Shown here: positions 1,250-29,905 of the stretch, piece after piece
Numbering within the stretch: position 1 is the stretch's first letter
How the letters are laid out: every line of letters starts with the position of its first letter
From: a virus
Lineage: Duplodnaviria > Caudoviricetes
IMG/VR virus record: IMGVR_UViG_3300043540_000139
Span: 1 to 57,100 of that record
Strand: one strand, 5' to 3'
Length of the DNA: 57,100 nucleotides
The notes under the pieces: model-generated
Seen by the model: the letters and a program-made list of their open reading frames with translations, nothing else
Told to the model about the DNA's origin: nothing
Databases searched by the model: none
Program-made: the position numbers and the translations under genes

Positions 1250-3193
1250 ATGTCACAGCAAAATTTGTTTTCAAATGTAGCAAATCCTAATCAAAAAAGG
1301 ATTACCGAACTTGAAAAGATTATCAAAAAGGCAAAAGTCGCTTACTATATAGATAGTAAACCAATTATGTCTGATGATGATTTTGATTTATTAAGAGATG
1401 AATTAAAAATTCTGGACCCCAACAACAGAATACTTGCTTTAACAGGAACAGATGTTAAAGATAAAAAGGGTTGGGCTTCCAAAAAACTTTCCGAACCAAT
1501 GGGTTCTCTTGAAAAAGTAAATTCAATGAAAGAATTTAATGATTGGGCAGAACAACACAAAGGAAAGAAAATGGTTTATAATCCCAAAGGTGATGGTGGA
1601 AGTATTGAATTGACTTACCTTAAAGGTAAACTCGTTTCTGCTATAACCAGAGGTGATGGATATGAAGGATTTGATATTCTTTCCAATGTCCTTAAAATGA
1701 AAAACGTAAAACCTACCATTAAAACAACTGCCGATGTTGTTATTCTTCAAGGTGAAATTTTAATTTACTATACTGATTTTCTTGCACTGAAAAAACTTGT
1801 AAATGACCCTGAGAAATATAAAAATCCCAGAAATACTGCCAATGGTTTAGCCAAATCACAAAGCAATAGTGATTACTGCAAATTCCTTACTATATTATAT
1901 TGGGGTGCTTCTATTCGTGGTAACAAAGTTCTTCCAGATGATTTTGAAGGTGTTTGTAAACACTATGGTGTTAAATCAATTGGAACATATCAGATAAAAC
2001 ATCTTCAGGAATATTATGATAAACTTGGAAAGGATCCAGACAAGAGAGAAGAAATAATGAGAAAGATTTATAATTTTGATATTGATGGTTTCGTTGTTAA
2101 GTGTAATGAACCACCACAAATGCGAGGTAATACACCTGTCAATTATATTGCCGTTAAATTTCCAGCACCTGCCGCAGTAACAAAGATATCAGAAATTCTT
2201 TTAGATAAAGGAAAATCTGGACAGATAACTCCTGTTGCGAAATTTGACCCACCTGTAAATCTTATGGGTGCTACAATAACAAAAGCAAGTATTGGTTCGT
2301 GGAGTTTGATGCAACAGAAAGGATTATTTCCGGGAGCAATCGTAAAGGTTATCAGAGCCAATGATGTTATCCCGAAAATAGAAGAAGTTGTAACTCCTGC
2401 TACTGTAAAATTTACACTTGCAGATGCACAAAAAATAATGGGTGATACGAATGTTGTTGTTCGGGGTGCTCATTTATTTACAACAACCAGAGATACTCAA
2501 ACGGTAATTTACGAAATTGTAAATATGTTTAAGATACTTGAAATACAGAATGTTGCTGAATCTACAATAGAAGCAATTGTAAATCATTTTAATATCAAGC
2601 ATGCTTATGAAATATTTGATGTTGATTTTGATAAAATGAAAACTGTTGCTGGTTTTGGTGATAGCAAAATTGATAATCTGAAGTTACAAATTCAAGCAAA
2701 ATCCAGAGTAAGTTTTAAAATATTTATGGATTGTCTTAATGTAAATAATATGGGAACTTCCAGAATAGTTGAAATTGTCAATACTTTTGGTTTGAAAAAT
2801 GTAAATGATTTATATAAATTAAAAGAACAAGACTTTCTGAAAGTAAATGCTTTTTCAGATGTTCTTGCTAAATCTGTTTATGATGGATTGCAGGCAAAGA
2901 AAGATTTCGCTTATCAACTTGTTAACAGACTAATTATAGATGATGATATTGGTAAACCTGTTTCAAATAAACTTGGTGGTAAAAAATTCTGTATTACAGG
3001 AAGAACAAGTATGAAAAGAAGTGATATGGAAAAACTGATTGAAGCCAATGGTGGCAAGAATAGTTCAATCGGTAGTTGTGATTATCTGATAAATAATGAT
3101 TCGGATTCCACCTCTTCCAAGAATAAAAAAGCAGCAGAAAAAGGAATTCCTGTAATAAGTGAAAAACAATTCTTTAAAACATTTGGATTATGA
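1250..3193 (+). CDS. ligA: NAD-dependent DNA ligase
   Basis: AYY...MSDDDFD (domain Ia), MGSLEK, KxDG (PKGDG), TRGDG, NPRN, IDGFVVK, IAVKF, OB fold GQITPVA...RANDVIP, HhH repeats and a C-terminal BRCT domain (FCITG...GIPVISE). Confidence 0.95.
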   Translation: MSQQNLFSNVANPNQKRITELEKIIKKAKVAYYIDSKPIMSDDDFDLLRDELKILDPNNRILALTGTDVKDKKGWASKKLSEPMGSLEKVNSMKEFNDWAEQHKGKKMVYNPKGDGGSIELTYLKGKLVSAITRGDGYEGFDILSNVLKMKNVKPTIKTTADVVILQGEILIYYTDFLALKKLVNDPEKYKNPRNTANGLAKSQSNSDYCKFLTILYWGASIRGNKVLPDDFEGVCKHYGVKSIGTYQIKHLQEYYDKLGKDPDKREEIMRKIYNFDIDGFVVKCNEPPQMRGNTPVNYIAVKFPAPAAVTKISEILLDKGKSGQITPVAKFDPPVNLMGATITKASIGSWSLMQQKGLFPGAIVKVIRANDVIPKIEEVVTPATVKFTLADAQKIMGDTNVVVRGAHLFTTTRDTQTVIYEIVNMFKILEIQNVAESTIEAIVNHFNIKHAYEIFDVDFDKMKTVAGFGDSKIDNLKLQIQAKSRVSFKIFMDCLNVNNMGTSRIVEIVNTFGLKNVNDLYKLKEQDFLKVNAFSDVLAKSVYDGLQAKKDFAYQLVNRLIIDDDIGKPVSNKLGGKKFCITGRTSMKRSDMEKLIEANGGKNSSIGSCDYLINNDSDSTSSKNKKAAEKGIPVISEKQFFKTFGL

Positions 3194-4079: not shown

Positions 4080-4640
4080 ATGACAAAAATATTAGTTGAA
4101 GTTGAAAATATACAACCGACATCACCGGAAACTCCGAACAATTTTATTTTGAAATTAAAAGAAAAAGATGGAACAAGAAATCTTAAAATAATTATTGGAT
4201 TATATGATTCCCAAATAATTGCTTTTGAACTTCAAAAATTAAAATCTGCAAGACCACTTGCCCACGATTTATATAAAACAATTTTAGATAAATTTGATAT
4301 TGAATTAAAATATACTGAAATCACTTCTATGGATTCTGATGAAGGTGTATTTTATGCCAATATAAATCTAAATGATAAAATTTTAGATTGCAGACCTTCG
4401 GATGGTATAATAATGGCATTGAAATTTAATGCACCTATTTATGTCAATGATAATTTATTTAAACTTGTTGGAGATGAAGGATTTAATACATCATTTGCAC
4501 AAAGCACACTTACTACAGATATCCTAATAAAACAAAAAGAAGCACAATTACTTGAAGCATCAGAAAAAGAAGATTATGATTTAGCAGATAAAATCAAAAA
4601 AGAAATTGAAAAATTAAAGAAAAGACAATCTGGTATTTGA
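4080..4640 (+). CDS. Bifunctional nuclease (DUF151/BFN) with C-terminal UVR motif
   Basis: LKIIIG...RPLAHDL, GVFYA, DCRPSDGI..A...APIYV; C-terminal EASEKEDYDLADKIKKEI is UvrB/UvrC-like. Confidence 0.88.
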   Translation: MTKILVEVENIQPTSPETPNNFILKLKEKDGTRNLKIIIGLYDSQIIAFELQKLKSARPLAHDLYKTILDKFDIELKYTEITSMDSDEGVFYANINLNDKILDCRPSDGIIMALKFNAPIYVNDNLFKLVGDEGFNTSFAQSTLTTDILIKQKEAQLLEASEKEDYDLADKIKKEIEKLKKRQSGI

Positions 4641-10268: not shown

Positions 10269-10506
10269 TTATATTTTGTAAAAGGTGATAAGACAGTAAC
10301 AAATATCAGCCAAAACTTTAAAGATGCCGAAAAAGCACTTAAAGGACATAATACTTATACACAGAATAAATTTGGATATGGAAGTTTATATGTTTGTAAT
10401 GTAAAATCAAAAGATTGGAAAGCAAATAAAATAACAAAAGATTTCTTCCAAAATCAGTTAGCATTTCTAATATGCAACTGAATACTGAAATTGGGATAAT
10501 AAAAGA

Positions 10507-12768
10507 ATGGCAGTTGAATTAAATAATACGGATATACAAGCCCAAAGATTAAAAGAAATTATAAGATACCGCAAAGACCCTATTGCATTTTTAAAAGAAC
10601 AATGCAAAATTAAACATCCACGCAGGGGTATTATACCATTTGAATTATTCCCAGCACAAGAAGATTGTATTAAAAATTTTATAAATCATCGTTTCAATAT
10701 TGTATTAAAATCCAGACAATTGGGTATAACAACTATTGTTGCTGGTTATTGCACTTGGCGTATGGTATTCTTTCCACATCAGGAAATTAGAGTTGTTGCA
10801 ACCAAAAATGAAACAGCACAAATTTCAATTGAAATGGCTAATACAATGGTAGACAACATTGAACCTTGGATATTATCTATGCTTGGTGCAATTAGAGCTA
10901 CTGAAAGAAAACATACAGTAGAATTGTTGAATGGTTCTCGTATGTCAGCATTTGGACAAGCCAGAGGAAGTAATCCCGATACTGGTGTTGGTAGATCATT
11001 ATCTTTATTAGTAGTTGACGAAGCAGCACTTATTCCTAATATGACAGATATTTGGACATCAATTTATCCAACACTTTCACAGGGTGGAAATAGTTGTGAT
11101 GAAAATACAATAATTTTTACCGATAAAGGTTTATATAGAATTTCTGATTTAAATCCAACTCAAAATTTATCAGAAGGATTTTATGATTTAAAAAATATTA
11201 ATGTTATAAATAAAAATAATAAACCAGAAAATGCATTAAGTTATCATATTTCAAAACCTATATTAGGAAATAAAATTTATTTTGATAATGGTAATTTTAT
11301 TATTGTTTCTGATGAACATCCATTATTATGTAATTTTGATAATGAAGAGTTTTGGAAAGAAAGTAAAGATATAAAAATTGGTGATACTATAGTAGGACAA
11401 TATAATCAAAATGTGTTTGGTAGTTTAATAAAATATCCAGAATTTAAAAACTATCACAATATAAGAAAAAATTATGAAATGAATAATATTGATTTTTCTT
11501 ATCTTTGTGGATTGTTTGTTGCAAAAGGAAACTTAATTAAGAAAAACACAAAACCTTATGCAATTAATATTACCAATGGAGACGTTGATATTCAAAATTG
11601 GTTGAGAAACAATAAATTTAAAAAAATTGATGATAGACATTTTAGATTAACAAATTCTTATGCAACCGAAAAATTAATATTTTTAGGTTGCAAAGAATAT
11701 TCCAAAAACAAAACAGTGCCTAACAAAATATTGTCTTCTACAAAAGAAGAACAAATTTCATTCTTACAGGGATTGTTTGACGGTGATGGATGTTCAAGTG
11801 GAAATATGATAAAGTATGATTCTGCATCCGAACAATTAGTTATAGATGTTCATACAATGTTATTGAATTTTGGTATTATATCATCTATAAAGAAAATAAC
11901 CCAGAAACCAACAAAACTTGTAAAAAAATATAATGGAACTGGTTATGAATTAAGGATATACGGTGAAAATACAAGAAAATTTTATGAGATTATAGGATTT
12001 AGATTGCAAAGAAAACAATTAAATTATAATAAAATAAAAGATAATAAAAATTTTAGTTTATATAACATTTCCGACAAAAATAATTTTAAAACAATGGCTC
12101 AAAAAAGCGGATATGTTTTGTATCATTCCAAGAACAATAATAATAAAAAATATTTAAGAGACTATATAAACATAGAAAGATATTTATACACTAAAAATGA
12201 TAATATATCTAAACATTGTGCAAATGTAATTTTGGATATATACGATAAAGATTTAGAAGAACATAAAATATTTAAAGAAGAAGTGTCTAAACAAGAAAAT
12301 AATACCAAACTATATTTAAAAGTTTCGCATATAGAAAGAACAAAAATAGAAAAACCAATGTATGATTTTATTGTTCCGAACACACACTCTTTCGTTGGGA
12401 ATGGAATAATAAACCATAATTGTATCGTTTTAAGCACTCCCAGAGGAACTTCAAACTGGTTTTATGATACTTTCCGTAAAGCAGAAGATAAAGACTATAA
12501 AGAAGGTGAAATTCCATTTCACCCAATAAAACTTATGTGGTGGGAAAATACAGAAAGAATGAATACACCATTAGAACCAGATGAAAGTATTCCCGGTGGA
12601 TATACTAATCAATGGGCAAGGGCAACTTTTGCTAATTTGACATTAAAACAAATTGCACAAGAATATTGTGTTTCAGAAAATACTATGGTTACTATTAGAA
12701 ATAAAGAGAATAATAATATAGAAACAATTTCTATAAAAGAATTGAAAGAGAGGTTAAAAAATGAATAG
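10507..12768 (+). CDS. terL: Large terminase piece 1 (ATPase domain) with one cis intein and C-terminal split-intein N-half
   Basis: T4 gp17-like: FELFPAQ, Walker A LKSRQLGITT, Walker B LLVVDEAA, and spliced PTLSQGGN|CIVLSTPRG. Ends IAQEY|CVSENT... Confidence 0.93.
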   Translation: MAVELNNTDIQAQRLKEIIRYRKDPIAFLKEQCKIKHPRRGIIPFELFPAQEDCIKNFINHRFNIVLKSRQLGITTIVAGYCTWRMVFFPHQEIRVVATKNETAQISIEMANTMVDNIEPWILSMLGAIRATERKHTVELLNGSRMSAFGQARGSNPDTGVGRSLSLLVVDEAALIPNMTDIWTSIYPTLSQGGNSCDENTIIFTDKGLYRISDLNPTQNLSEGFYDLKNINVINKNNKPENALSYHISKPILGNKIYFDNGNFIIVSDEHPLLCNFDNEEFWKESKDIKIGDTIVGQYNQNVFGSLIKYPEFKNYHNIRKNYEMNNIDFSYLCGLFVAKGNLIKKNTKPYAINITNGDVDIQNWLRNNKFKKIDDRHFRLTNSYATEKLIFLGCKEYSKNKTVPNKILSSTKEEQISFLQGLFDGDGCSSGNMIKYDSASEQLVIDVHTMLLNFGIISSIKKITQKPTKLVKKYNGTGYELRIYGENTRKFYEIIGFRLQRKQLNYNKIKDNKNFSLYNISDKNNFKTMAQKSGYVLYHSKNNNNKKYLRDYINIERYLYTKNDNISKHCANVILDIYDKDLEEHKIFKEEVSKQENNTKLYLKVSHIERTKIEKPMYDFIVPNTHSFVGNGIINHNCIVLSTPRGTSNWFYDTFRKAEDKDYKEGEIPFHPIKLMWWENTERMNTPLEPDESIPGGYTNQWARATFANLTLKQIAQEYCVSENTMVTIRNKENNNIETISIKELKERLKNE
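11092..12420 (+). mobile_element. Cis intein (443 aa, Ser1) with LAGLIDADG endonuclease in terL
   Basis: Starts SCDENTIIFT, contains SDEHP and FLQGLFDGDG, ends MYDFIVPNTHSFVGNGIINHN|C. Confidence 0.9.
12667..12765 (+). mobile_element. Split intein 1, N-half (33 aa)
   Basis: CVSENTMVTIRNKENNNIETISIKELKERLKNE then stop: intein block A only. Confidence 0.88.
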
Positions 12769-13279
12769 TGTATTAAAAGGATACAATACTATTAATAAAA
12801 CATTAAATGAAAATGATTTATTTGAATTACAAGAAACTATTGATATACTTAATAGAAATAATTTTTGGAAAAATACAAAATATGAAGTGTTAACTCCGAA
12901 TGGATATTTACCTTTTGATGGATTAAAACAAGTAAAATCAGATTTGTATAAATTTTATTTAGAAGATGGTAAAGTTTTAGAAGCTACATTAGACCATATT
13001 GTAGAAACAAAACAAGGAGATTTATCTATTATTGATTGTTATAATAATAATTTAGAATTAAAAACTTTAGAAGGTTTTACAAAAATAAACAAAATAGAAA
13101 AAATAGGATTAGATTATGTATATGATTTAGTTAATGTAAAAGATATACATAAATATTACACAAATAATATTGTATCTCATAATTGTTGTGTTTCTGGTGA
13201 TACTTTTGTTCAAATACAAACCAAAGATGGAGTAGTTTTCAAAACCAGAATTGATGAATTAGAAAGATTTATTTTATAA
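12761..13279 (+). CDS. Large terminase piece 2: IntC1 (141 aa) - one Cys extein - IntN2 (30 aa)
   Basis: YEVLTPNGY..F, EATLDH (block B), VYDLVNV..HKYYTNNIVSHN ending at 13183, then Cys at 13184-13186, then CVSGDTFVQIQTKDG...IDEL (13187-13276). Overlaps the stop of piece 1. Confidence 0.9.
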   Translation: MNSVLKGYNTINKTLNENDLFELQETIDILNRNNFWKNTKYEVLTPNGYLPFDGLKQVKSDLYKFYLEDGKVLEATLDHIVETKQGDLSIIDCYNNNLELKTLEGFTKINKIEKIGLDYVYDLVNVKDIHKYYTNNIVSHNCCVSGDTFVQIQTKDGVVFKTRIDELERFIL

Positions 13280-13532
13280 TACCAAATCCAGAAAAATATA
13301 ATATGTATTTTAATAATAATCCGATGATTATGGAACTAGAAGTTGAATCAAAAAACACATAAAGTATAAAAAAATATTAATTGATGTTTATAATCATAGT
13401 TTGTTTATATATGGAGACAATTCTTCTTATGTTGGGAAAGTAACTAAAATAGTTTTTAAAGATAAAAAGACTAATCAAATAGTTATGACATTTAAAAAAA
13501 GGGATAATGAATCCCTAATGGAGGACATAAAT

Positions 13533-13934
13533 ATGACAGTTAAAATTAAAAAATCCGAATTGAAAAAACTTATTAAAGAAGAACTTGGGAAAATGATGTC
13601 TCTTCCAACATTTAGTTTATTGGGTGGTGCAAAATCAAAAGTATGGGAACAATCAGCAACTCCAGATGAAGTGGCAGAAATAGAAAAAGAACTTCCAAAA
13701 TTACCTTTAAATCATATCGCTGGAATAATTAAACAAGATTGGAAAAATGTATGGTTTGGTGCAAAACCATATTTAGATGCTTTGTTTTCATTAAATAGTA
13801 TTAAAGATAATTATGGATCAGACAGTGGTTTAAGTATAGTTGCATATTTTCTTTCTAATGCAGCACAATGGAAGGGTCCGGTAGCAAAGATTGTAAAAAA
13901 AGAATTAAAAAAAAGATTAAAGAATGGTAGATAA
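13533..13934 (+). CDS. Leader-bearing hypothetical phage protein lying between terL pieces
   Basis: GGAGG RBS before ATG 13533; MTVKIKKSELKKLIKEEL leader; C-terminal DWKNVWFGAKPYLDAL...YFLSNAAQWKG domain. Confidence 0.7.
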   Translation: MTVKIKKSELKKLIKEELGKMMSLPTFSLLGGAKSKVWEQSATPDEVAEIEKELPKLPLNHIAGIIKQDWKNVWFGAKPYLDALFSLNSIKDNYGSDSGLSIVAYFLSNAAQWKGPVAKIVKKELKKRLKNGR

Positions 13935-14082
13935 ACTCGTTCATATCATTGAAGTAATAGTTGTAATTTTGGGAATTGCGAGTTTAGTTTCTTTTGTAGT
14001 AGTATTAATTTGGTGGTTTGTAGAATTAAAAATAGATGATAATGAAAACATTAATTCAAACATTAAAAGAAGTAAAAAGTAA
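13924..14082 (+). CDS. Small single-TM membrane protein (52 aa)
   Basis: MVDKLVHIIEVIVVILGIASLVSFVVVLIWWFVELK...; below the ORF-track cutoff, overlaps its neighbours. Confidence 0.5.
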   Translation: MVDKLVHIIEVIVVILGIASLVSFVVVLIWWFVELKIDDNENINSNIKRSKK

Positions 14083-14314
14083 ATTTGCTTCAGATGAAGT
14101 TAAGATTGAAGAAGACTTAACTAAATTTTGGGTTACTTTTATTTGGCAAAATGGATGGGAAACAATATCAAGACATAGATTTAGAAAAGATGCAGAAGAA
14201 ATTAAAGAATTAATATTAAAAAACAAAACACCTTTGGAAATAAAAAATGTTATAGATAAACAAAATAAGACTAGGTTTTCCAAATGGGTTGCTCCATATT
14301 GGGTAAATTGGTAA
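14036..14314 (+). CDS. Hypothetical protein
   Basis: 92 aa; MKTLIQTLKE leader-like start. Confidence 0.55.
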   Translation: MIMKTLIQTLKEVKSKFASDEVKIEEDLTKFWVTFIWQNGWETISRHRFRKDAEEIKELILKNKTPLEIKNVIDKQNKTRFSKWVAPYWVNW

Positions 14315-14425
14315 AACAATGAAAATAAAAAAATCAGAATTGAAGAAAGTAATTAAAGAAATCTTGTTTAAGTTGGCAAAGATATAGCTTCTATGAAGAA
14401 AGAATTAATTAAAGATAGAAAATAA

Positions 14426-14779
14426 ATGATACAAGAAAAATTCATAAAGAATAATAAAAAAGTAAAAGTATTAACACAGGATGGTTATAAAGACTTTTCT
14501 GGTGTAAGGAGTTTATATAAAAAAGTTTTATATGTAATTACTTTTACCGATAATACCGAAATAAAAATAACTGATAATCATATATTATTCTTACCAGATG
14601 ATAAAGAAATATCTGCAAAAGAATTGATGATTGGAGACCAATTAAAATCTAAAAATGGTTTGAAAACAATTTCTTCAATAACAGTTTCAGGTAATCTTGT
14701 ATCTGGTTTTAAAGTGTTTGATTTGGTAGATGTAAAAGATGTAAATACATATTATACCAATGATGTTTTATCACATAAT
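14426..14779 (+). mobile_element. Split intein 2, C-half (118 aa)
   Basis: VKVLTQDGYKDF, KITDNH, VFDLVDV..NTYYTNDVLSHN|C; lacks block A. Confidence 0.88.
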
Positions 14780-16885
14780 TGCAATTTTAATTTATCCGGT
14801 GAAACTGCACTTGAACCCGAAAAACTTAACTTTATTAGGGAAAATTATACCAAAGAACCGATTGCAAAAGAAGGACCTAATCAGGAATTGTGGATATGGC
14901 GTTATCCAGAAACAAATAAAAATTATATTTGTTTACCAAGAGGGGAAAAAATTCTAACAAATTCTGGTTTAAAAAACATTGAAGAGGTTACCAATCAAGA
15001 AAAATTATATGATATAAATGGTAATATAACAGATATTGTTGAAATCAAGAAAAGAAATTACGATGGTGATATTTATGAAATATTTTTACACACACACTTT
15101 AGAAGCAATAAATTTACAGATGAACATCCTGTTTATGCGAGTAAAGAAAACAAATTATTTAGAAATTATAAAACAAATCACGATAAATATAAATTTAATG
15201 AAAGATATAGAATATTTTCTTTTAAGTATATTGAAAGTAAATATTTAAAAATTGGGGATTGGGTAAAATATCCTAATATATATAAGAACAATATTTTGAA
15301 TGAAAAACAAATTTTACAAAAATTTGACAAATATTCGGAAATTGGTAGAACTGATTTTAAAATTAAAGATAAAAATTTTATTTTGGATAAAGATTTTTGG
15401 TGGTTAGTTGGTTTATGGTTAGCAGAAGGTTGGATTGAAAACGGATATAATAATGACAAATCTATTCTTTTTGGTTTGAATATAAATGAAACAGAATATT
15501 CAAAAAAAATATCTATTATTGTTAATAAATTATTTGGTAGAAAATTAACAATAACATCAAAACCCATAAACAATAGTATGATTTGTAAATTTAATTCTAA
15601 ACAATTAGCAATGTTTTTGTTTGACAATTTCGGTAAATATGCAAAAAACAAAGCAATACCAGAATGGGTTAAGTTTTTACCCAATGAATTAAAATTAAAT
15701 TTGATATATGGATATTATAATGGAGATGGATATTTAAAAAATAAATCAATTCCAAACAAACCACATACAGTTAATTTTGTCAGTGCTTCTTTAAATTTAT
15801 TGGAAGGAATTCAGGATATTTTATTTTCTTTGGGGATAATAAGTTCTTTACAAAAAATAACAAATGGTGGTATTGGTTTTATAAAAGACAGAAAGGTTAA
15901 TATTTCTGATAAATATAGTCTTGATCTTGGTGTATTTGATACCAATAAATTTTTAAAATTAAACAATGATATTCAATATTTAAATGACATTTTTTATAAA
16001 AGAAGAATTAGATATTGTTATTTTAGTGAAGATGAAAATTATATTTATTTTAAAATAAAAGGCATAAAAAAACATCAATATAATGGTGATGTATATAATT
16101 TTGAAACAACAGCACATTCATTTTTAGTAAGAGGTTTAGTTACACACAATTGTGGAGTAGACGTTGCAAAGGGTGATGGTTCTGACTTTTCTGCAGCACA
16201 AATTATATGTATGGAAACCTTTGAACAAGTTGCAGAATTTAAAGCAATGATAGATAAAGAAAGATTTGGACAATTGTTGTGCAAATGGGGGATGGATTAT
16301 AATGGAGCATTATTGGTAATTGAAGATAACTATGGCGAAAGAACAATTCAAAAAGTAATTGATTTACATTATCCAAATTTATTCTGGATGGATACAAAAT
16401 TCAAAGGATTAATATTTGATAATTTAGAAAAAGTAAAAATAAACAAAAGAAGTCCGGGTTGGCATACAACAGCCAAAACCAGACCTTTAATTCTTGAAAA
16501 TATTTTGAAACAATTGAGGGATTCCGTAGATGATGAATCTGGATTGGGTGGTATCACAGTTAGAAGCACCAGATTGTGTTCTGAACTTGAAACTTGGGGA
16601 TATTATGGTGGTAGATTAGACCACGCATCCGGGAAACATGATGACTTGATATTTGCAATGGCAATCGCTGCGTTTATCCAGACAGTTTATTCCAAAATAA
16701 CTGAAAGAGAAAATAGGGATGCTGTTGAATTCATGAAACATTTTAGTAATTCTGGAAAATTAGTTGATATGAATTTCGGTGTTTATGGAACAAATACAAG
16801 AAGTAGAAATATTATCAATCAATATGATGTGGATGGTGTTGATATTTCTTGGTTGCTAAAAGATAAACCTGATGAGGAGAAATAA
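14426..16885 (+). CDS. terL: Large terminase piece 3: IntC2 plus RNase H-like nuclease domain with one cis intein
   Basis: Begins with an intein C-half ending VLSHN|CNFNLSG; spliced KNYI|CGVDVAKGDGSDFSA, LVIEDN, GWHTTAKTRP and HDDLIFAMAIA nuclease motifs. Confidence 0.93.
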   Translation: MIQEKFIKNNKKVKVLTQDGYKDFSGVRSLYKKVLYVITFTDNTEIKITDNHILFLPDDKEISAKELMIGDQLKSKNGLKTISSITVSGNLVSGFKVFDLVDVKDVNTYYTNDVLSHNCNFNLSGETALEPEKLNFIRENYTKEPIAKEGPNQELWIWRYPETNKNYICLPRGEKILTNSGLKNIEEVTNQEKLYDINGNITDIVEIKKRNYDGDIYEIFLHTHFRSNKFTDEHPVYASKENKLFRNYKTNHDKYKFNERYRIFSFKYIESKYLKIGDWVKYPNIYKNNILNEKQILQKFDKYSEIGRTDFKIKDKNFILDKDFWWLVGLWLAEGWIENGYNNDKSILFGLNINETEYSKKISIIVNKLFGRKLTITSKPINNSMICKFNSKQLAMFLFDNFGKYAKNKAIPEWVKFLPNELKLNLIYGYYNGDGYLKNKSIPNKPHTVNFVSASLNLLEGIQDILFSLGIISSLQKITNGGIGFIKDRKVNISDKYSLDLGVFDTNKFLKLNNDIQYLNDIFYKRRIRYCYFSEDENYIYFKIKGIKKHQYNGDVYNFETTAHSFLVRGLVTHNCGVDVAKGDGSDFSAAQIICMETFEQVAEFKAMIDKERFGQLLCKWGMDYNGALLVIEDNYGERTIQKVIDLHYPNLFWMDTKFKGLIFDNLEKVKINKRSPGWHTTAKTRPLILENILKQLRDSVDDESGLGGITVRSTRLCSELETWGYYGGRLDHASGKHDDLIFAMAIAAFIQTVYSKITERENRDAVEFMKHFSNSGKLVDMNFGVYGTNTRSRNIINQYDVDGVDISWLLKDKPDEEK
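14930..16150 (+). mobile_element. Cis intein (407 aa) with LAGLIDADG endonuclease in the terL nuclease domain
   Basis: CLPRGEKILT, FTDEHP, LVGLWLAEG, IYGYYNGDG, VYNFET..HSFLVRGLVTHN|C. Confidence 0.92.
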
Positions 16886-18130: not shown

Positions 18131-21100
18131 ATGGCAAATTTTTGGGATAGACTAAATAATTTAGTTAGACGTAAAATTACCAGACGTAGAGTTCCAACAT
18201 CTGTTCCTTACGGGCAGACAGGTCCGGGATTTTATTCATCTCAGGTATTCGGTTCAAAATTGGCAACAAGTATTTATGAACATAATCTTCAATCAACAGC
18301 AGATAGATTGGCAAGAATTAGGGATTATGATGCAATGGATACCACACCAATAGTTTCAACAGCATTAAATGTTTATTGTTTAAGAAGGGGAACAAAAATA
18401 CCATTGTTAAATGGTAGTGTTGTAAAAATAGAAGAATTATTAAAGTTATCTAACGAAGAGTTAGATGGTGTATATGTTTATTCATATGACATTGGAAATA
18501 GAAAAATTACAAGTGGAAAACTTCTTAATGCAATGCAGACAGGAAAAAATGTAGAAATATGGAAACTAACATTAGATGATAATACTATTGTAGAAACAAC
18601 GCCAGAACATAAATTTATGTTAAGGGATGGTTCTTATAAAATGCTTAAGGACTTAAAAGAAAATGATTTTTTAATGCCATTTTATACTAAATTAAGCAAA
18701 AAAGAAGATGTAAAACACAACAACCATAAAGTAAAGAAAATAGAATTTTCTTGTTACGATGATGTATATGATTTAACAGTAGAAAAATATAGTAATTTTG
18801 CAATTGTTACTGATGATAAAAGAAACGGTATATTTGTTCATAATTCTGATGATGCTTCTTCTTATGGGGAAGATGGACAAGTTTTAACAATCAGTTGTAA
18901 TAATCAAAAAATGTTAGAAGATTTAGAATATCTATTCTACGATATTCTTAATGTTGATTTTAACATTTATCACCAAATTAGAACACTTTGTAAATATGGT
19001 GATAAATTTGAATTGCTTTCAATTGAAAAAGGTAAAGGTGTAACTGGAACGATTGCATTACCGACAGCAGAAATTGAAAGGGAAGAAGCGTATGATGGTG
19101 ATCCCACAAGTGTAAGATTCAGATGGGTTGCACAAATAGGTGCGGCTTATAATGAATTTCAGGTTGCACATTTTAGATTGATGGGTGATGATAATTTTTT
19201 GCCTTATGGAAGATGTTTAAAATGGGATTCTTATATTGAAACACCAACTGGATTTAAAATGATTAAAGACATTAAAATTGGTGATGAAGTTTATTCTTTT
19301 GATACAAAAACTGAAAAGAAAATTATTACAACAGTGAAAAATACTGTTTGTTCAGGTAAAAAACAAATATATAAAATAAAATCAAAAAATAATGAATTGG
19401 AACTATCAAAAGAACATAATATAATGATTTGGGATGAAATAGAAAATAAATTTAATTACAAAAATATTTATGATTTAAAAATTGGGGATAAAATAGTAAT
19501 AAATAAACAAACAATAACCGATAATGAAATTAAGCAATGTAAAAAATACGACAAATCAAATAGATTAACTGATGAATATATTTTAACACCTATAATTTCA
19601 ATTGAAAAAACAGATGATTTTGAAGACGTATATGATATATATATTGACGAACAAAATCATAATTTTTTTGCAAATGGTATTGTGGTTCATAATTCCGTAT
19701 TGGAATCTGGAAGAGGTATCTGGAAGAAATTGCAATTGCTTGAAGATGCTATGTTGATTTATAGAATCAGTAGGGCAGCAGAAAAAAGAGTGTTCCAAAT
19801 TGAAGTAGGTAATATTCCATTTGACCAGATTGAAAATTATATTGAACAACAAAGAAGTAAAATTAAAACAGAAACAATTATTAATCCTTCAACTGGAGAA
19901 ATTGATTTAAGGTATAGGGTTAGTGCTTTAACAGATGATTATTGGTTAGCAAAACGTGGTGATATGATGTCTACAATTGAAACATTACCAGGTGGATGTC
20001 TTGCTTTAAATACAAAAATTGCATTGCTTGACGGAAGAAATTTGGAATTACAAGAAATTATAAAAGAATATGAACAAGGAAAACAAAATTGGGTTTATTC
20101 TTGTAATCCAAAAACAGGTGAACCTTGTGTTGCACCAATTTCGTGGGCTGGAATTACAAAAAGAAATACACAAGTTTTGAAATTAACATTGGATAACAAT
20201 TCGGAACTGATAGTTACACCAGAACATAAAATGTTAAAAAGAAGTGGAGAATTCATATCTGCTGAAAAATTAAAGGTTGGTGATTCTCTTATGCCATTTG
20301 TTAGAAAAATAAATTCAGACAATACTTGGTTAGACGGATATGAAAAACTGTATGATAATAATTCAAATAAATGGGTATTTACGCACAGACTTGTGAAAGA
20401 ACAATTTAAGAATAATTTGATTAAGGAATTTGTGTTTGAGTCTAAATATCAAAATGCAATCAAGAATGTTATTCATCATAAAGATTTCAATAAAAGAAAT
20501 AATAATCCAAGTAATTTGGTAATGATGAATAATTTTGACCATTTAAAATTACATCAAGAATATTGTAGAAATCCATTTAGAAGAAAAGCAATCTCTTCCT
20601 CTTTGAAATATTTTTGGAAAAATCAACCAGATGAATATAAAACAGAAAAGAAAAATCAATTGGTAAATGGATTACAAAACAAATTTAAACAAAACCCAGA
20701 ATTCAAGAAAAAATGGTATGAAAAAGCAGGTAAAACTCAATCTTTTACAAAGAAAAACAACAAAGAAGTAAATGATAAAATAATTGAAAATAATAAACTG
20801 ATGTGGAGAAATGATGAATATAAAAATAAAATGATAAACAATAATTCAACAAGATGGAACAATCCAGAATTTAGAAAAAATACAAGTAAGAAATTTTCTG
20901 AAATAAAAAAATATAAATATGATTCTGTAATTCATAAATATATTGTGGATGCTTATAAAAATGGAAACGATGATGGCGACAAATTAGCAAAATGGATGAA
21001 TGAATCCGAAGAATTTAAAAACAAATTTTATGAATTAAATCCAATTGCAAAACATTATACAAAAGAATTCAAAAGAGGATTGGTAAGAAAAATTATTTGT

Positions 21101-22111
21101 GATTTAGGTTATGATGGGTTTAGAGATTTTAAAGAAAAAGTTCCAATGTTTAATCATAAAGTAATTAAAATTGAATGGTTGGAAGAAAAAATTGATGTTG
21201 GAACAATTACTGTTGATGGGGATGAAATATATACAAACAATCATACATTTGCTTTAAGTGATGCTTTAAATGGCTGTGCTATTTACGTTAAAAATAGCAA
21301 CCTTAATGATATTGAAGATGTTGAATATGTAAAACAACAATTGATTACATCTTTGGGTGTTCCAAAAGCGTTCTTGCAATTTGAAGATGATTTAGAAGGC
21401 AAATCATCTGCGTCCAAAGTTGATATGAGGTTTGCAAGAACTATACAAAGAATACAAAAGATTATGATTTCTGAATTTACCAAGATTGCAATTTTGCATT
21501 TGTTCGCAAAAGAAAAATATGATGAAAATGAAATTTTTAATTTTGAATTAAAGATGCATAATCCTTCAGCAATTATGGAATTAGGTAAATTGGAAATTAT
21601 GGAGAAAAGATTTGATATTTATAATAAAGCAGTAAACGATTCTAAGGCAATCAGTATGACAAAAGCCAAAAAAGAAATCTTGAATATGACTGATGAAGAA
21701 TTGAAAGATGAACAAAAGCAATTGGAAGTAGATGCTAAATTCAGTGCCAAAGTTCAGAAGTTAGCCGATCCTACCCAACAAGAAAGTGGTGAACAACCAA
21801 CTGGTGGAAGTTCAACTGAAAGTAGTGGTGGAGAAGAACAGGACAAATTATCTGATATGTTAGATAGTTTAGAAGCAGATAGTTTAGGTGGAGAAGCAAA
21901 CCCATCAATTAAACAATCTGATAAAGGAGAGTTAAAAACTGGTTCTGATTATGATTTGGCTGGTGATTCATTAAACGGTAGTATTCAACCTAATCCCGAT
22001 AAAGATGTTTTATTTGAAAACATTTTTTCAAAGAACGGGAAATTAAAACTGGTTGATTTTTTGAAGCAAACCAAATTAGATAATGGAGATAATTCAGATG
22101 AGCAAGAGTAA
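18131..22111 (+). CDS. Portal protein (T4 gp20-like) with three inteins
   Basis: YDAMD..PIVSTALNVY|SDD, RTLCKYGD, VAHFRL..DDNFLPYGR|SVLE, LLEDAMLIYRISRAAEKRVF, IETLPGG|SNLNDIEDVEY, LGVPKAFL, DMRFARTIQRIQ. Spliced length 577 aa. Confidence 0.95.
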   Translation: MANFWDRLNNLVRRKITRRRVPTSVPYGQTGPGFYSSQVFGSKLATSIYEHNLQSTADRLARIRDYDAMDTTPIVSTALNVYCLRRGTKIPLLNGSVVKIEELLKLSNEELDGVYVYSYDIGNRKITSGKLLNAMQTGKNVEIWKLTLDDNTIVETTPEHKFMLRDGSYKMLKDLKENDFLMPFYTKLSKKEDVKHNNHKVKKIEFSCYDDVYDLTVEKYSNFAIVTDDKRNGIFVHNSDDASSYGEDGQVLTISCNNQKMLEDLEYLFYDILNVDFNIYHQIRTLCKYGDKFELLSIEKGKGVTGTIALPTAEIEREEAYDGDPTSVRFRWVAQIGAAYNEFQVAHFRLMGDDNFLPYGRCLKWDSYIETPTGFKMIKDIKIGDEVYSFDTKTEKKIITTVKNTVCSGKKQIYKIKSKNNELELSKEHNIMIWDEIENKFNYKNIYDLKIGDKIVINKQTITDNEIKQCKKYDKSNRLTDEYILTPIISIEKTDDFEDVYDIYIDEQNHNFFANGIVVHNSVLESGRGIWKKLQLLEDAMLIYRISRAAEKRVFQIEVGNIPFDQIENYIEQQRSKIKTETIINPSTGEIDLRYRVSALTDDYWLAKRGDMMSTIETLPGGCLALNTKIALLDGRNLELQEIIKEYEQGKQNWVYSCNPKTGEPCVAPISWAGITKRNTQVLKLTLDNNSELIVTPEHKMLKRSGEFISAEKLKVGDSLMPFVRKINSDNTWLDGYEKLYDNNSNKWVFTHRLVKEQFKNNLIKEFVFESKYQNAIKNVIHHKDFNKRNNNPSNLVMMNNFDHLKLHQEYCRNPFRRKAISSSLKYFWKNQPDEYKTEKKNQLVNGLQNKFKQNPEFKKKWYEKAGKTQSFTKKNNKEVNDKIIENNKLMWRNDEYKNKMINNNSTRWNNPEFRKNTSKKFSEIKKYKYDSVIHKYIVDAYKNGNDDGDKLAKWMNESEEFKNKFYELNPIAKHYTKEFKRGLVRKIICDLGYDGFRDFKEKVPMFNHKVIKIEWLEEKIDVGTITVDGDEIYTNNHTFALSDALNGCAIYVKNSNLNDIEDVEYVKQQLITSLGVPKAFLQFEDDLEGKSSASKVDMRFARTIQRIQKIMISEFTKIAILHLFAKEKYDENEIFNFELKMHNPSAIMELGKLEIMEKRFDIYNKAVNDSKAISMTKAKKEILNMTDEELKDEQKQLEVDAKFSAKVQKLADPTQQESGEQPTGGSSTESSGGEEQDKLSDMLDSLEADSLGGEANPSIKQSDKGELKTGSDYDLAGDSLNGSIQPNPDKDVLFENIFSKNGKLKLVDFLKQTKLDNGDNSDEQE
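18377..18844 (+). mobile_element. Portal mini-intein 1 (156 aa)
   Basis: CLRRGTKI...TTPEHKF...VYDLTV...IFVHN|S. Confidence 0.92.
19214..19693 (+). mobile_element. Portal mini-intein 2 (160 aa)
   Basis: CLKWDSYI...SKEHNI...VYDIYI..HNFFANGIVVHN|S. Confidence 0.92.
19997..21295 (+). mobile_element. Portal intein 3 (433 aa) with HNH endonuclease
   Basis: CLALNTKI...VTPEHK; HNH motif FTHRLV...VIHHKDFNKRNNNPSNL...H; ends IYVKN|S (Lys replaces the penultimate His). Confidence 0.88.
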
Positions 22112-23276
22112 TCTTGATATATTGAAAGAACTAACAAATCAGTTAGTTGAGAAAGATACTGAATTAAAAAAATCACAATTGAAATATTTTGAGATGTTTA
22201 ATTCGGTTGCCCATCCGATGATATTAATTGACAAAGAAACTACACAACCATTAGAAGTAAATGAAGAAGCGGTTGATGTTTATGGATACTCTAAAGAAGA
22301 GTTTATGAATATCACCAAAGGTCAAATTGTTGTTGATTTTGAAAATTTCCTTGATATTATAAAGAACAATAAACCTTATAGGATTGGATATGACAAAACA
22401 AAAGATGGTCATAAAATTCCAGTTGAAGTATATTATAGTTATTATAATTTAGATGGTAAAGATGTAGTAATTTGTTCAGTGATTGACATTAGTGATAAAA
22501 TTAATATCATTAGAGATTTAACTTTGAAAAATGAGTTATATAAAGGAATGATAGAAAATACGAATGAATTGATTGTTAGATCAGATATGCAGCAAAGAAT
22601 GACATTTATGAACGAAGCATTTTGTAAGTTGTATGGGATAAAAGTAGAAGATTATTTGGGAAAATCATTTATTTCGTTTGTTCATCCAGATGATTTACCA
22701 TTAACCAAAGCAAACATTGAAAAATTGAAACAACCACCACATAGAGTTCGTTATTCCCAAAGAGAAATGACAGTCAAAGGGTGGAGAGAAATTGAATGGG
22801 AAGTAACACTTATTTATGATTATGATAAACAACCATGTGAATTGCAGGCAGTAGGAAGAGATATAACAGATTATCTTGAAACAAGAAGAGAATTGTTGGC
22901 AAGGGAAGAAGAATTGCATATCAAAAATGAATATTTTGAGAAGTTATTGAAACTGTTCTGTTTCCCGGCATTTGTAACTGATTTGAATCATAAAATATTA
23001 GCATATAATTCCGAAGCTAAAAGATTTATTAATATTGAAAATCCTACTGGTGAATATTCCTATAAATTAATGATTCACAAAGAAGATAGAGAAAAATTTA
23101 AAGAAGATATAAAACAACATTATATAGATAAAGAAGAAGATTTAAAGAATAATTTGTTTGAAGGGTATTATAAAATGATAAATTCGGAAATAGGTCACAT
23201 CAAGATTACATCAGTTAGAAATTTGAAAAAAGAATTAGTGGCGTTAATTGGGACTGTTTCTTTTGGAGGAATTTAA
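22098..23276 (+). CDS. Multi-PAS/PAC sensor-like protein without output domain
   Basis: VNEEAVDVYGYSKEEF, KDGHKIPVEV, MNEAFCKLYG..EDYLGK..FVHPDD, AVGRDIT, and a third PAS-like segment. GGAG RBS before ATG 22098. No kinase or GGDEF motifs. Confidence 0.85.
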   Translation: MSKSNLDILKELTNQLVEKDTELKKSQLKYFEMFNSVAHPMILIDKETTQPLEVNEEAVDVYGYSKEEFMNITKGQIVVDFENFLDIIKNNKPYRIGYDKTKDGHKIPVEVYYSYYNLDGKDVVICSVIDISDKINIIRDLTLKNELYKGMIENTNELIVRSDMQQRMTFMNEAFCKLYGIKVEDYLGKSFISFVHPDDLPLTKANIEKLKQPPHRVRYSQREMTVKGWREIEWEVTLIYDYDKQPCELQAVGRDITDYLETRRELLAREEELHIKNEYFEKLLKLFCFPAFVTDLNHKILAYNSEAKRFINIENPTGEYSYKLMIHKEDREKFKEDIKQHYIDKEEDLKNNLFEGYYKMINSEIGHIKITSVRNLKKELVALIGTVSFGGI

Positions 23277-27875: not shown

Positions 27876-28182
27876 AATCTTTGGAAACAAGAGTAGTTAT
27901 ATGCTTGATGCAAACAAAAAAATAAAAACACATAAAATAAAAGAATGGAGTAACAAAATGAAAGCAAGACAAATGCCAGATGGTTGGAACGAAAAAATAA
28001 GTCAAATATCAAGTAAACCGAAATCAGAAACACACCAAAAAAATATTGGTGTTTCCACAAAAAGGCATTGGCAAGATGATAATTTTAGAAATAAAATTAC
28101 AGAAACAAGAAAGGTTACTGTGAAGAAAAAGTGGAAAAATTTTCCTAACCAATATCAAAAAGGAGAGTTATATGAACAATAA
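27859..28182 (+). pseudogene. NUMOD3-like homing endonuclease remnant
   Basis: KPKSETHQKNIGVSTKRHWQDDNFRNKI basic repeats; directly upstream of the protease gene. Confidence 0.5.
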
Positions 28183-29905
28183 TAATTTAATGCTTTTGAA
28201 AGAATACCGTATTTTGCAAACCAAAAATAATTTTATAGTTGAACATGTAGAAGAAGGATACGAAAAAATAATATTAAAAGGTAAATTGCAAGAAGCAGAA
28301 GCAATGAATCATAATGAAAGATGGTATCCAATGCCTATTCTTGAAAGAGAAATAGAAAATTTCAAACAACTTATTAGGGAAAATAGGTCTCTGGGTGAGT
28401 GTGTTACTCCTGATACAGAAGTGCTTACAATTAACGGTTGGAAACCAATAACTAATGTTGAAGTTGGAGAAAAAATATTTACTTTAAATTTAGATACAAA
28501 CGAAATCCAAATTCAAGAAAATGAAATTGTAACCGAAAGAGAACATAAAGAAGATATGATACATATTTATAATAATTCTTCATTAGATATGATGTTAACT
28601 CCAAAACACCAAGTTGTATTGTGGGATAGATATAATAGAAGTTATATTTTGACAGCACAAGAATTGATGGAAAAAATAAATTCAAATGATTCAAAAGTTA
28701 ATCATTCTTATATCAAAAAAGGTGGCGATTGGATTGGTGAAACACCAAGTGAATTTATAATTCCAAATTCTGAATTTAAAATTAAGCCAGAATTGTGGGT
28801 AGCTTTTCTTGGACTTTATTTGACAGAAGGATATTCTTATGAAACAAATTCAAAAGATTGCAATAAAAAAATAGTTGTTATCACACAAAAAGAACAAGAA
28901 GAAAAAGATATGATAAGAAGTTTGATTGAAGAAATTGGATTTGAATATACTGAATATATAAGAGAAAATGGTGAAACATCGGATTTTTATATTTACCAAG
29001 ATGAACTATATGAATATTTGTTAACACTTGGAAACTCAAAAGAAAAATATATTCCAAATGAAATAAAAAATTGGAATAAAAATTTATTATCAATAATGCT
29101 TGATTGGATGTTGATTGGTGATGGTAGAAATAGGCATAATTATAAAAATGAATCATTAAAAAAATATACAACAATATCAAAAAAACTTGCAGAAGATGTA
29201 TTAGAAATTATGATTAAACTTGGCAATGGTGGTTCTATAAGAACATATCAACCACAAGATAGATATATTGGCGATAGATTAATAGAAGGAACAAATAGCA
29301 ACTTACAATATACAGTATATTATAATACATCAAAAGGAATCTATCTTGATAGTAGGTTTGTAAAAGCAGAATCGGTTCCTTATAATGGAAATGTATATTG
29401 TGTTACAGTTCCGAATAAAACTTGGTTGATGAAATATAATAATAAAATTAATTGGACACATAATTGTGACCATCCGGATAATGCAATAGTCAATCTTGCA
29501 AATGTATCACATATTATTCGTGAATTATGGTGGAAAGGAAAAGAAGTTTGGGGTAGAATTGAATTACTGAATGGTCCAGACCCATACGGAACACCTTCGG
29601 GTAGAATATTAGAATCTTTGGTAAGACGTGGTGTTACACTTGGTATTTCTTCCAGAGGTATTGGAAGCACTAAAACTGACAGCGAAGGTAGAGAAATAGT
29701 GCAACCAGATTATCAACTTATTACTTGGGATTTTGTTTCCAATCCATCTACACATAATGCATTTATGTTGAAAGAAAATAGAACATATAAAACAAGTAGA
29801 AGTTTGACAACCGAAGAAAGAAATAAACTTAAATATGAAAAATTAAATAATGTTCTCAATACAACTTTAAGATATGAAAAAGATACTGGTATTTTTATAT
29901 TTTAA
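28172..29905 (+). CDS. Prohead core protease (T4 gp21-like) with intein
   Basis: LQEAEAMNHNERWYP, spliced LGE|CDHP, VSHII, TPSGRIL, catalytic GISSRGIGS, WDFVSNPSTHNA. Spliced length 222 aa. Confidence 0.95.
   Translation: MNNNNLMLLKEYRILQTKNNFIVEHVEEGYEKIILKGKLQEAEAMNHNERWYPMPILEREIENFKQLIRENRSLGECVTPDTEVLTINGWKPITNVEVGEKIFTLNLDTNEIQIQENEIVTEREHKEDMIHIYNNSSLDMMLTPKHQVVLWDRYNRSYILTAQELMEKINSNDSKVNHSYIKKGGDWIGETPSEFIIPNSEFKIKPELWVAFLGLYLTEGYSYETNSKDCNKKIVVITQKEQEEKDMIRSLIEEIGFEYTEYIRENGETSDFYIYQDELYEYLLTLGNSKEKYIPNEIKNWNKNLLSIMLDWMLIGDGRNRHNYKNESLKKYTTISKKLAEDVLEIMIKLGNGGSIRTYQPQDRYIGDRLIEGTNSNLQYTVYYNTSKGIYLDSRFVKAESVPYNGNVYCVTVPNKTWLMKYNNKINWTHNCDHPDNAIVNLANVSHIIRELWWKGKEVWGRIELLNGPDPYGTPSGRILESLVRRGVTLGISSRGIGSTKTDSEGREIVQPDYQLITWDFVSNPSTHNAFMLKENRTYKTSRSLTTEERNKLKYEKLNNVLNTTLRYEKDTGIFIF
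28400..29464 (+). mobile_element. Intein (355 aa) with LAGLIDADG endonuclease in the prohead protease
   Basis: CVTPDTEVLT, LTPKH, FLGLYLTEG, MLIGDG, VYCVTV...WTHN|C. Confidence 0.92.

Follow-up and report, generated by a model that had tools for sequence, protein, structure and literature searches.

A putative three-piece phage terminase with two predicted split inteins at adjacent codons

Layout of the terminase genes

The large terminase subunit (TerL) of a tailed virus (Duplodnaviria; Caudoviricetes) represented by IMG/VR record IMGVR_UViG_3300043540_000139 lies in three collinear genes on the + strand, whose order is that of the protein. The whole 57.1-kb virus record, hereafter the window, was analyzed; it is estimated to hold about 17% of a complete genome, and nearly all of its long open reading frames (ORFs) are on the + strand. 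The first terL gene (piece 1) ends with the short N-terminal half of a split intein (IntN1), the second (gene 2) is made of the C-terminal half of an intein (IntC1), a single cysteine (Cys142), and another N-terminal half (IntN2), and the third (piece 3) begins with a second C-terminal half (IntC2) (Table 1). This layout of intein halves had been proposed in an earlier reading of the locus (the original prediction), and the ORF translations bear it out. With the full-length LAGLIDADG inteins of pieces 1 and 3, the gene set holds four inteins, two split and two full-length.

Table 1 Parts of the three terL genes and their positions in the window.
Feature	Nucleotides	Strand	Length and residues	Basis
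TerL piece 1 gene	10507-12768	+	753 aa	Terminase_6N, Intein_splicing, LAGLIDADG_3 (Pfam); spacing versus L103/L104 and phage TerLs
N-extein of piece 1		+	aa 1-195	
Full LAGLIDADG intein A	11092-12420	+	aa 196-638 of piece 1	
Second extein of piece 1	12421-12666	+	aa 639-720, ending ...LTLKQIAQEY	
IntN1	12667-12765	+	33 aa, CVSENTMVTIRNKENNNIETISIKELKERLKNE, first residues CVSENT; Cys1 directly after QEY	Translation
Gene 2	12761-13279	+	172 aa: IntC1, Cys142, IntN2	ORF translation
IntC1	12761-13183	+	gene 2 aa 1-141, ending ...YYTNNIVSHN; aa 1-37 leader, 104-aa core	
Cys142, predicted one-codon middle extein	13184-13186	+	gene 2 aa 142	Block A register; QE..F spacing; S or C there in L103/L104
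IntN2	13187-13276	+	30 aa, gene 2 aa 143-172, CVSGDTFVQIQTKDGVVFKTRIDELERFIL, first residues CVSGDT	
Three small ORFs between the halves of intein 2	13401-14314	+	177, 52, and 92 aa	
TerL piece 3 gene	14426-16885	+	819 aa: IntC2, then CNFNLSGETALEPEK (CNFNLSG...) from nt 14780	
IntC2	14426-14779	+	118 aa, ending ...YYTNDVLSHN	CatC match; invariant residues kept
Extein of piece 3	14780-14929	+	aa 119-168	
Full LAGLIDADG intein D	14930-16150	+	aa 169-575 of piece 3	
Nuclease-domain extein of piece 3	16151-16882	+	aa 576-819	

Both split inteins interrupt the QE-x-x-x-x-F motif of TerL before a cysteine, at QEY/C and C/CNF (a slash marks the insertion point), with IntN1 placed between positions 3 and 4 of the motif. 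The start codon (ATG) of gene 2, located 7 nt downstream of a GAGAGG, shares bases with the stop codon of piece 1, and translation of the two genes looks coupled. Ahead of piece 3 there are 1.15 kb of other ORFs. The three small ORFs that separate the halves of intein 2 include no recognizable homing endonuclease: the Pfam matches are weak and below threshold, and the PHROGs matches are to phrog_13953 (function unknown) and, weakly, to phrog_8120.

Once the inteins are removed, the exteins are collinear with known T4-type (Terminase_6) TerLs. The C-extein of piece 3 matches annotated TerLs of 314 phage records, and the pieces align to two phage TerLs and to two TerLs from viral contigs, L103 and L104, which are 55-57% identical to that of the window. 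The Walker A, Walker B, and nuclease Asp residues are conserved with respect to relatives at this identity, and all reading frames are open. The predicted product has 572 aa (195 + 82 + 1 + 50 + 244), as had been claimed, provided that intein A starts at Ser196, which was taken as its first residue because it fits the GG-x-C spacing of homologs. By register and extein spacing, intein A seems to have a Ser at its start and a Cys at +1; this Ser1/Cys+1 combination, known from GOS-TerL, is called rare in a review (PMC11766414).

The record is reproduced in part by an independent assembly of a public DNA sequencing run (X1), which covers positions 10400-13232, with the HN-C-C junction inside, and 14129-14985, with the second junction inside; X1 may be the sample that the window was assembled from. 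A search of sequencing runs for the window found this single DNA run and no RNA run among those listed. At positions 14031-14158, X1 yields two variant contigs with six differences, and it has a few other single-base variants; strains of the phage therefore coexist in that sample.

Intein halves, the single cysteine, and the nearest relatives

The best match of both long halves in the PDB is CatC, chain B of 6DSL (6dsl_B), with E values of 1.7e-17 for IntC2 and 1.9e-8 for gene 2. With E values of up to 10 allowed, IntN2 matches a single PDB chain, CatN (6dsl_A; E = 0.087). IntN1 has no match in the PDB; its best local matches are the IntN tails of metagenomic TerL pieces, e.g. P0034 (56% over 34 aa). 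An AlphaFold2 model of gene 2, with a predicted local distance difference test score (pLDDT) of 87, is matched by Foldseek to the gp41-1 intein (E = 5e-6) and to 6dsl_B (template modeling score 0.70, normalized to the target), indicating that gene 2, as modeled, has the HINT (intein) fold. Because both long halves match CatC and the model matches solved inteins, the homology of the intein halves is evidently not due to chance.

All four halves keep their catalytic residues: Cys1 and the block B T-x-x-H of each intein, the block F Asp, the terminal HN of each IntC, and both +1 cysteines. The class 1 residues are Cys1, T76-x-x-H79, D122, H140-N141, and Cys142 for intein 1, and Cys143, T49-x-x-H52, D99, H117-N118, and Cys119 for intein 2. 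Judged from alignments with 15 (IntC1) and 14 (IntC2) relatives, every invariant column is kept, i.e. G48, H79, D122, V126, N135, and N141 in IntC1 and H52, D99, N112, S116, H117, N118, C119, and F121 in IntC2. The block B motif lies in the C-half of both inteins, IntC holding all splicing blocks but the first. The sizes of the halves (33/141 and 30/118 aa) fit the range given in the accessible text on atypical split TerL inteins (AceL-, GOS-, and Cat-TerL), which have a short IntN of 25-37 aa and a long IntC of 104-122 aa (PMC2677866, PMC11766414). IntN1 and IntN2 give no BLASTP alignment to each other and share 11 of 26 residues as judged by eye and in a local alignment, and IntC1 and IntC2 are 35-37% identical.

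We fetched 80 TerL loci from viral contigs, of which 79 hold the QE-x-x-x-x-F motif in one open frame without an intein (the other, L039, lacks the region). The gap from QE to F is four residues in every one of these 79 loci, 66 of which read CDCD, and two named phage TerLs read AAQEC-D-C[DN]F, i.e. QECDC[DN]F. In the window the corresponding residues are Y, C, C, and N, which number four only when Cys142 is counted. Moreover, for the CVSGDT of IntN2 to align in block A with the CVSENT of IntN1 and the CTSGDT of L104, residue 1 of IntN2 has to be the second Cys. Since the four-residue spacing needs Cys142 and the block A register agrees, Cys142 is, as far as the alignments go, a true extein residue. 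We also considered a zero-extein reading, with IntN2 beginning at the first Cys, and rejected it on block A register and spacing. The original prediction could have been contradicted by intein-free homologs reading QEYCNF with no extra residue; instead, all 79 have the four residues that favor the extra Cys. The restored spacing that it claimed also agrees with the nearest relatives, which read QEY-S-CNF (L103) or QEY-C-CDF (L104 and the metagenomic proteins P0006 and P0135). The structural core of the three-piece reading is thus supported at the sequence level.

A first scan of viral contigs with the C-extein of the window alone found no locus; L103 and L104 came from a clade-specific locus scan. 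L104 has one split intein at QEY/CCDF: its N-terminal piece ends with ...KKKIAQEY followed by a 31-aa IntN, and its C-terminal piece, beyond seven ORFs (3.8 kb), consists of a 113-aa IntC followed by CCDFILSGETA. L103 has one contiguous mini-intein of 154 aa between ...KQIAQEYS and CNFNLSGDTA, the site being QEYS/CNF. Because each of these relatives has one of the two sites occupied, the window combines two states that are found separately in L104 and L103. Among metagenomic relatives, P0006, P0014, and P0135 show IntC/[CS]CDF. Overall, the QE motif of the relatives contains four adjacent intein sites, namely QE/C (P0143, P0013, P0027, and P0118), QEY/C, QEYx/C, and QEYxx/C (P0010, P0018, and P0097).

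The intein of L103 lies one residue downstream of that of L104, yet its C-part is closest to the C-part of the L104 intein (53%); this offset is a hint that inteins can move over by a codon. L103 also shows a masked or unknown stretch at 4590-4610 (XX in the translation) with an apparent frame change near the Walker A region; its terL is interrupted there, probably by a gap in the sequence rather than by another split.

Proposed splicing, origin, and alternative readings

We consider it likely, with good confidence, that this large, intein-rich, T4-like, uncultured phage makes its TerL from three polypeptides by means of two adjacent class 1 atypical split inteins. In this scheme, IntN1 would dock into IntC1 and IntN2 into IntC2, and two trans-splicing reactions, in either order, would join QEY to Cys142 and Cys142 to CNF (QE-Y/C/C-N-F), while the two full-length LAGLIDADG inteins would splice in cis to yield the 572-aa TerL. 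Cys142 would serve as the +1 nucleophile of intein 1, and its carbonyl would be the scissile -1 position of intein 2. Either splicing order should lead to the same product.

The pairing of IntN1 with IntC1 and of IntN2 with IntC2 is favored by the collinear gene order, by the spacing, by the probable history of the two inteins, and by a correlation between N-parts and C-parts. In 67 contiguous relatives, an N-part more like IntN1 than IntN2 goes with a C-part more like IntC1 than IntC2 (Spearman 0.33, p = 0.006, with relatedness uncontrolled). A complex prediction with three chains (the end of piece 1, the start of piece 3, and gene 2 as their partner) scored 0.22 against a mark of 0.32, with no controls folded, and weighs neither for nor against the pairing.

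Regarding history, we built a tree of 197 IntC domains from the window and 150 listed relatives of gene 2 (106 columns, most forks unresolved). IntC1 groups with P0006 and P0014 (SH-aLRT 95); IntC2 falls in no starred set, its nearest rows being P0050 and P0115. The nearest outside relative is 46-51% identical to IntC1 and 47% identical to IntC2, both values exceeding the identity of IntC1 to IntC2. Because IntC1 and IntC2 belong to different lineages, two separate intein invasions seem more likely than a duplication. The in-situ duplication of one intein was rejected, IntC1 and IntC2 not being sisters in the tree.

In P0006 and P0014, a DUF559 (Vsr-like) domain, of the same endonuclease type as in fractured genes (PMC2677866), is fused in frame before the IntC of the TerL C-piece and is not free-standing. 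The N-terminal 70 aa of P0006 look unrelated, and this protein may be a gene-call or assembly chimera. A plausible ancestor would resemble L104, with one split intein at QEY/CC and, at an earlier time, a DUF559/Vsr-like homing endonuclease serving it. The next codon (C/C) would then have been invaded by a second intein, from another lineage, after which the endonuclease would have been lost and the second intein split by inserted DNA. Most likely, the arrangement arose without selection for a new function. It had been suggested that a whole gene exists to deliver one cysteine; it seems better to see gene 2 as a side result of two intein invasions with subsequent splitting.

The genome is intein-rich, the structural module being heavily invaded. 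The T4-type portal (1326 aa, 18131-22111) has three Pfam intein-splicing-domain stretches and a sub-threshold HNH match, and the prohead protease (577 aa, 28172-29905) has a LAGLIDADG domain with a weak signal and an intein-splicing match below the Pfam cut-off. Many small ORFs near the terminase pieces begin with a shared motif like MKIKKSELKKLIKE, in the window at 13533-13580 and 14320-14385, in L103 at 439 and 3785, and in L104 at 3079 and 4819; they may be a family of mobile small genes or share a common N-terminal signal. Other genes of the window (1250-3193, 22083-23276, and 49507-50961) encode a NAD-dependent DNA ligase with a BRCT domain, a PAS-domain protein, and an HD-domain enzyme that resembles CCA-adding/poly(A) polymerases, a content in keeping with a large phage.

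Several points weigh against splicing as proposed. The IntC of GOS-TerL accepts the IntN of AceL-TerL, and cross-reactivity is documented for atypical TerL inteins in the available part of the source (PMC11766414); therefore IntN1 and IntC2 might yield a product one residue short. The likeness of the two IntNs to that of L104 does not discriminate between pairings (scores of 52 and 58). In the single-chain AlphaFold2 model, the IntN2 segment of gene 2 has a pLDDT of 87-97, which could mean that it docks in cis onto IntC1, and two HINT domains one residue apart may clash if they are assembled together. The 37-aa leader of gene 2 aligns just weakly to the tail of the DUF559 domain, an alignment that is not seen with P0014. 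Finally, a record of about 17% of the genome may leave room for a second, unbroken terL elsewhere.

A possible extension of the three-piece model, which adds to it without contradicting it, is that the tandem arrangement was selected as a checkpoint that times packaging, with terminase active only when three products coincide or only in reducing conditions, the latter because three cysteines must be free. We regard this as unlikely. The three separate translation units, the 1.15 kb of ORFs before piece 3, and the three consecutive catalytic Cys residues at the junction speak for such a checkpoint. Nevertheless, promoter-like sites, not above the level of shuffled sequences (44 against 56.6 expected in a promoter and terminator scan), give no sign of differential expression, close relatives manage with one intein or none, and the intein-rich genome and the homing endonucleases of relatives fit selfish spread.

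A still less probable alternative is that gene 2 is a dispensable relic. IntN1 would then pair with IntC2 to give QEY-CNF, and IntC1-Cys-IntN2 would be an inert, self-docked, circularly permuted intein. The paralogy of the two inteins, the cross-reactivity noted above (documented in the accessible text of PMC11766414), and the high confidence with which the IntN2 segment is modeled in the single chain are compatible with this idea, as is the slightly greater similarity of IntN2 than of IntN1 to the L104 IntN, the IntC of L104 being one that resembles IntC1. However, QE and F would be only three residues apart in the product, as opposed to four in all 79 homologs, L103, and L104, and the catalytic residues of gene 2 are all intact, with its start coupled to piece 1. 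Nor does a permuted intein gene have an origin that is plausible, whereas the gene order is accounted for by invasion and splitting in succession, and the N-part/C-part correlation has the sign of cognate pairing.

Least probable of all, and very much so, is that terL is decaying or non-functional in a defective phage, that another terminase is used, or that the locus is an assembly artifact: four inteins in one gene are a heavy load, and the record is partial and represented in just one DNA run, possibly its source, but the frames are all open, the extein motifs are conserved against the 55-57% identical relatives, a second assembler reproduces both junctions, the portal and prohead protease carry inteins in open frames too, and the locus is not an assembly duplicate because the intein halves are only 35-37% identical.

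Middle pieces among relatives and comparison with known systems

An exhaustive HMMER search with gene 2 retrieved 805 proteins at E up to 0.001, of which 150 were listed. A script flagged 31 of these 150 as having an IntC start and an IntN-like tail; from the reading of their tails, 20 of the 150, the window included, are real TerL middle pieces, the 11 others being ordinary C-termini of TerL or sequence of other kinds. Middle exteins go down to 0-11 residues among the 150 listed relatives. In two stand-alone genes, the whole extein is the Walker B strand (P0022, IntC/CVLIDE/IntN, 140 aa; P0070, IntC/CSMVYIDE/IntN, 145 aa), and a Walker B extein of 6-8 residues lies inside longer pieces in P0002, P0005, P0012, P0023, P0035, P0049, P0060, P0075, P0081, P0090, and P0095. 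In P0034 (375 aa) and P0030 (129 aa), nothing lies between the terminal HN of one intein and the C-[VI]-x-G-D with which the next IntN starts; with this zero-residue spacer, two inteins would occupy a single site. P0030 would add nothing to the product, and it may be truncated at its N-terminus. Searches of viral contigs for the loci of P0014 and P0030 gave no match.

A contiguous counterpart of the one-Cys arrangement occurs in another enzyme, the anaerobic ribonucleotide reductase (NRDD) P0150 (1937 aa). This protein has four Pfam intein stretches, and two of its contiguous, paralogous LAGLIDADG inteins are parted by a single Cys (...LLSSN/C/CVTEET...). No close relative of gene 2 was found among viral contigs, and a word-indexed protein search returned only the protein of the window itself (one of 40 candidates). 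The DNA pattern HN-C-C-[VILFM]-x-G-D-T, a narrow one that needs G-D-T, had no match in viral contigs, and its 18 matches in metagenome contigs were all in short non-intein ORFs of 16-71 aa. Within the 150 listed relatives and this narrow DNA pattern, a stand-alone gene with a one-residue middle extein was seen in the window only.

These observations allow a broader and more speculative view, in which inteins pile up at the same or the next codon and thereby create orthogonal pairs and bridge genes that contribute one residue (the window) or none (P0030 and P0034). Inteins could stack in this way because each needs only a downstream Cys, which the Cys1 of the next intein can supply. For the window, this would mean two truly orthogonal pairs, a fixed order, and a terminase gated by three products. 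We find this view as a whole conceivable though rather improbable.

If the three-piece model is true, no natural multi-piece protein would be known to have a middle extein smaller than Cys142, and the locus would prove, by a natural case, that HINT domains are able to function with a single residue between them. It would also offer engineers a candidate pair of compatible atypical split inteins, with IntNs of 30-33 aa that are within the range of peptide synthesis, for a nearly scarless three-piece ligation, and provide a system for asking how paralogous inteins avoid cross-reactivity. Together, the QE/x/x/x/xF hot spot, with its four adjacent sites, and the middle exteins of 0-11 residues show the extent to which selfish elements can fragment an essential phage gene.

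The closest known systems are GOS-TerL, AceL-TerL, and the engineered consensus Cat-TerL (PDB 6DSL), which share with the window the host protein, the motif region, the unusual split, and the Cys1/Cys+1 chemistry. Each of these has one split intein and two pieces, whereas the window has two inteins of different lineages at adjacent codons and three pieces. The placing of the AceL-TerL and GOS-TerL site at the second junction of the window, as made in the original prediction, is supported only indirectly: the CatC chain ends with ...SHA-CE, and relatives show QEFE/C and HN/CEFLGSS.

In the SICLOPPS scheme, an IntC, a target, and an IntN are joined in one chain, and the cognate halves cyclize the target. 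Gene 2 has the same IntC-X-IntN order, but its halves come from different inteins and its one-residue X is not cyclizable.

Fractured genes, as described in the accessible text of Dassa 2009 (PMC2677866), contain a split intein whose two halves are separated by the gene of a free-standing homing endonuclease. The likeness to the window is that a phage enzyme gene is broken by a split intein with its parts on one strand, and P0006 and P0014 have the Vsr-like/DUF559 domain there. The differences are that the window has no recognizable endonuclease, that the endonuclease of the relatives is fused to IntC, and that the window has two fractures one codon apart. As to a free-standing endonuclease, piece 1 and gene 2 have no gene between them, and the three ORFs before piece 3 gave no endonuclease match.

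Engineered tandem trans-splicing ligates three segments with two orthogonal split inteins (PMC7210297, PMC12707363) and, in the available portions of these papers, has the same topology as the window, i.e. N-piece-IntN(a), IntC(a)-middle-IntN(b), and IntC(b)-C-piece. The engineered schemes seen there use peptide- or domain-sized middle segments, whereas that of the window is natural and of one residue. Clustering of intein sites in conserved ATPase motifs is also known, e.g. at haloarchaeal MCM sites and at DnaB sites a and c, which are two residues apart (PMC10643990, PMC4760082). These inteins are contiguous and, in the accessible parts of the sources, close sites are not reported to be co-occupied one residue apart; the window has an intein at each of the two adjacent sites, and each of these is split.

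Full-text literature searches, some of them aimed at this arrangement itself and with most subscription journals outside their scope, turned up neither adjacent split inteins that are co-occupied, nor a one-residue extein, nor a natural three-piece terminase, in agreement with the earlier remark that no description of the arrangement was known. In summary, single atypical split TerL inteins and multi-piece TerLs are already known or common, and what appears to be new in the window is a pair of split inteins at adjacent codons with a middle gene that would contribute one residue.

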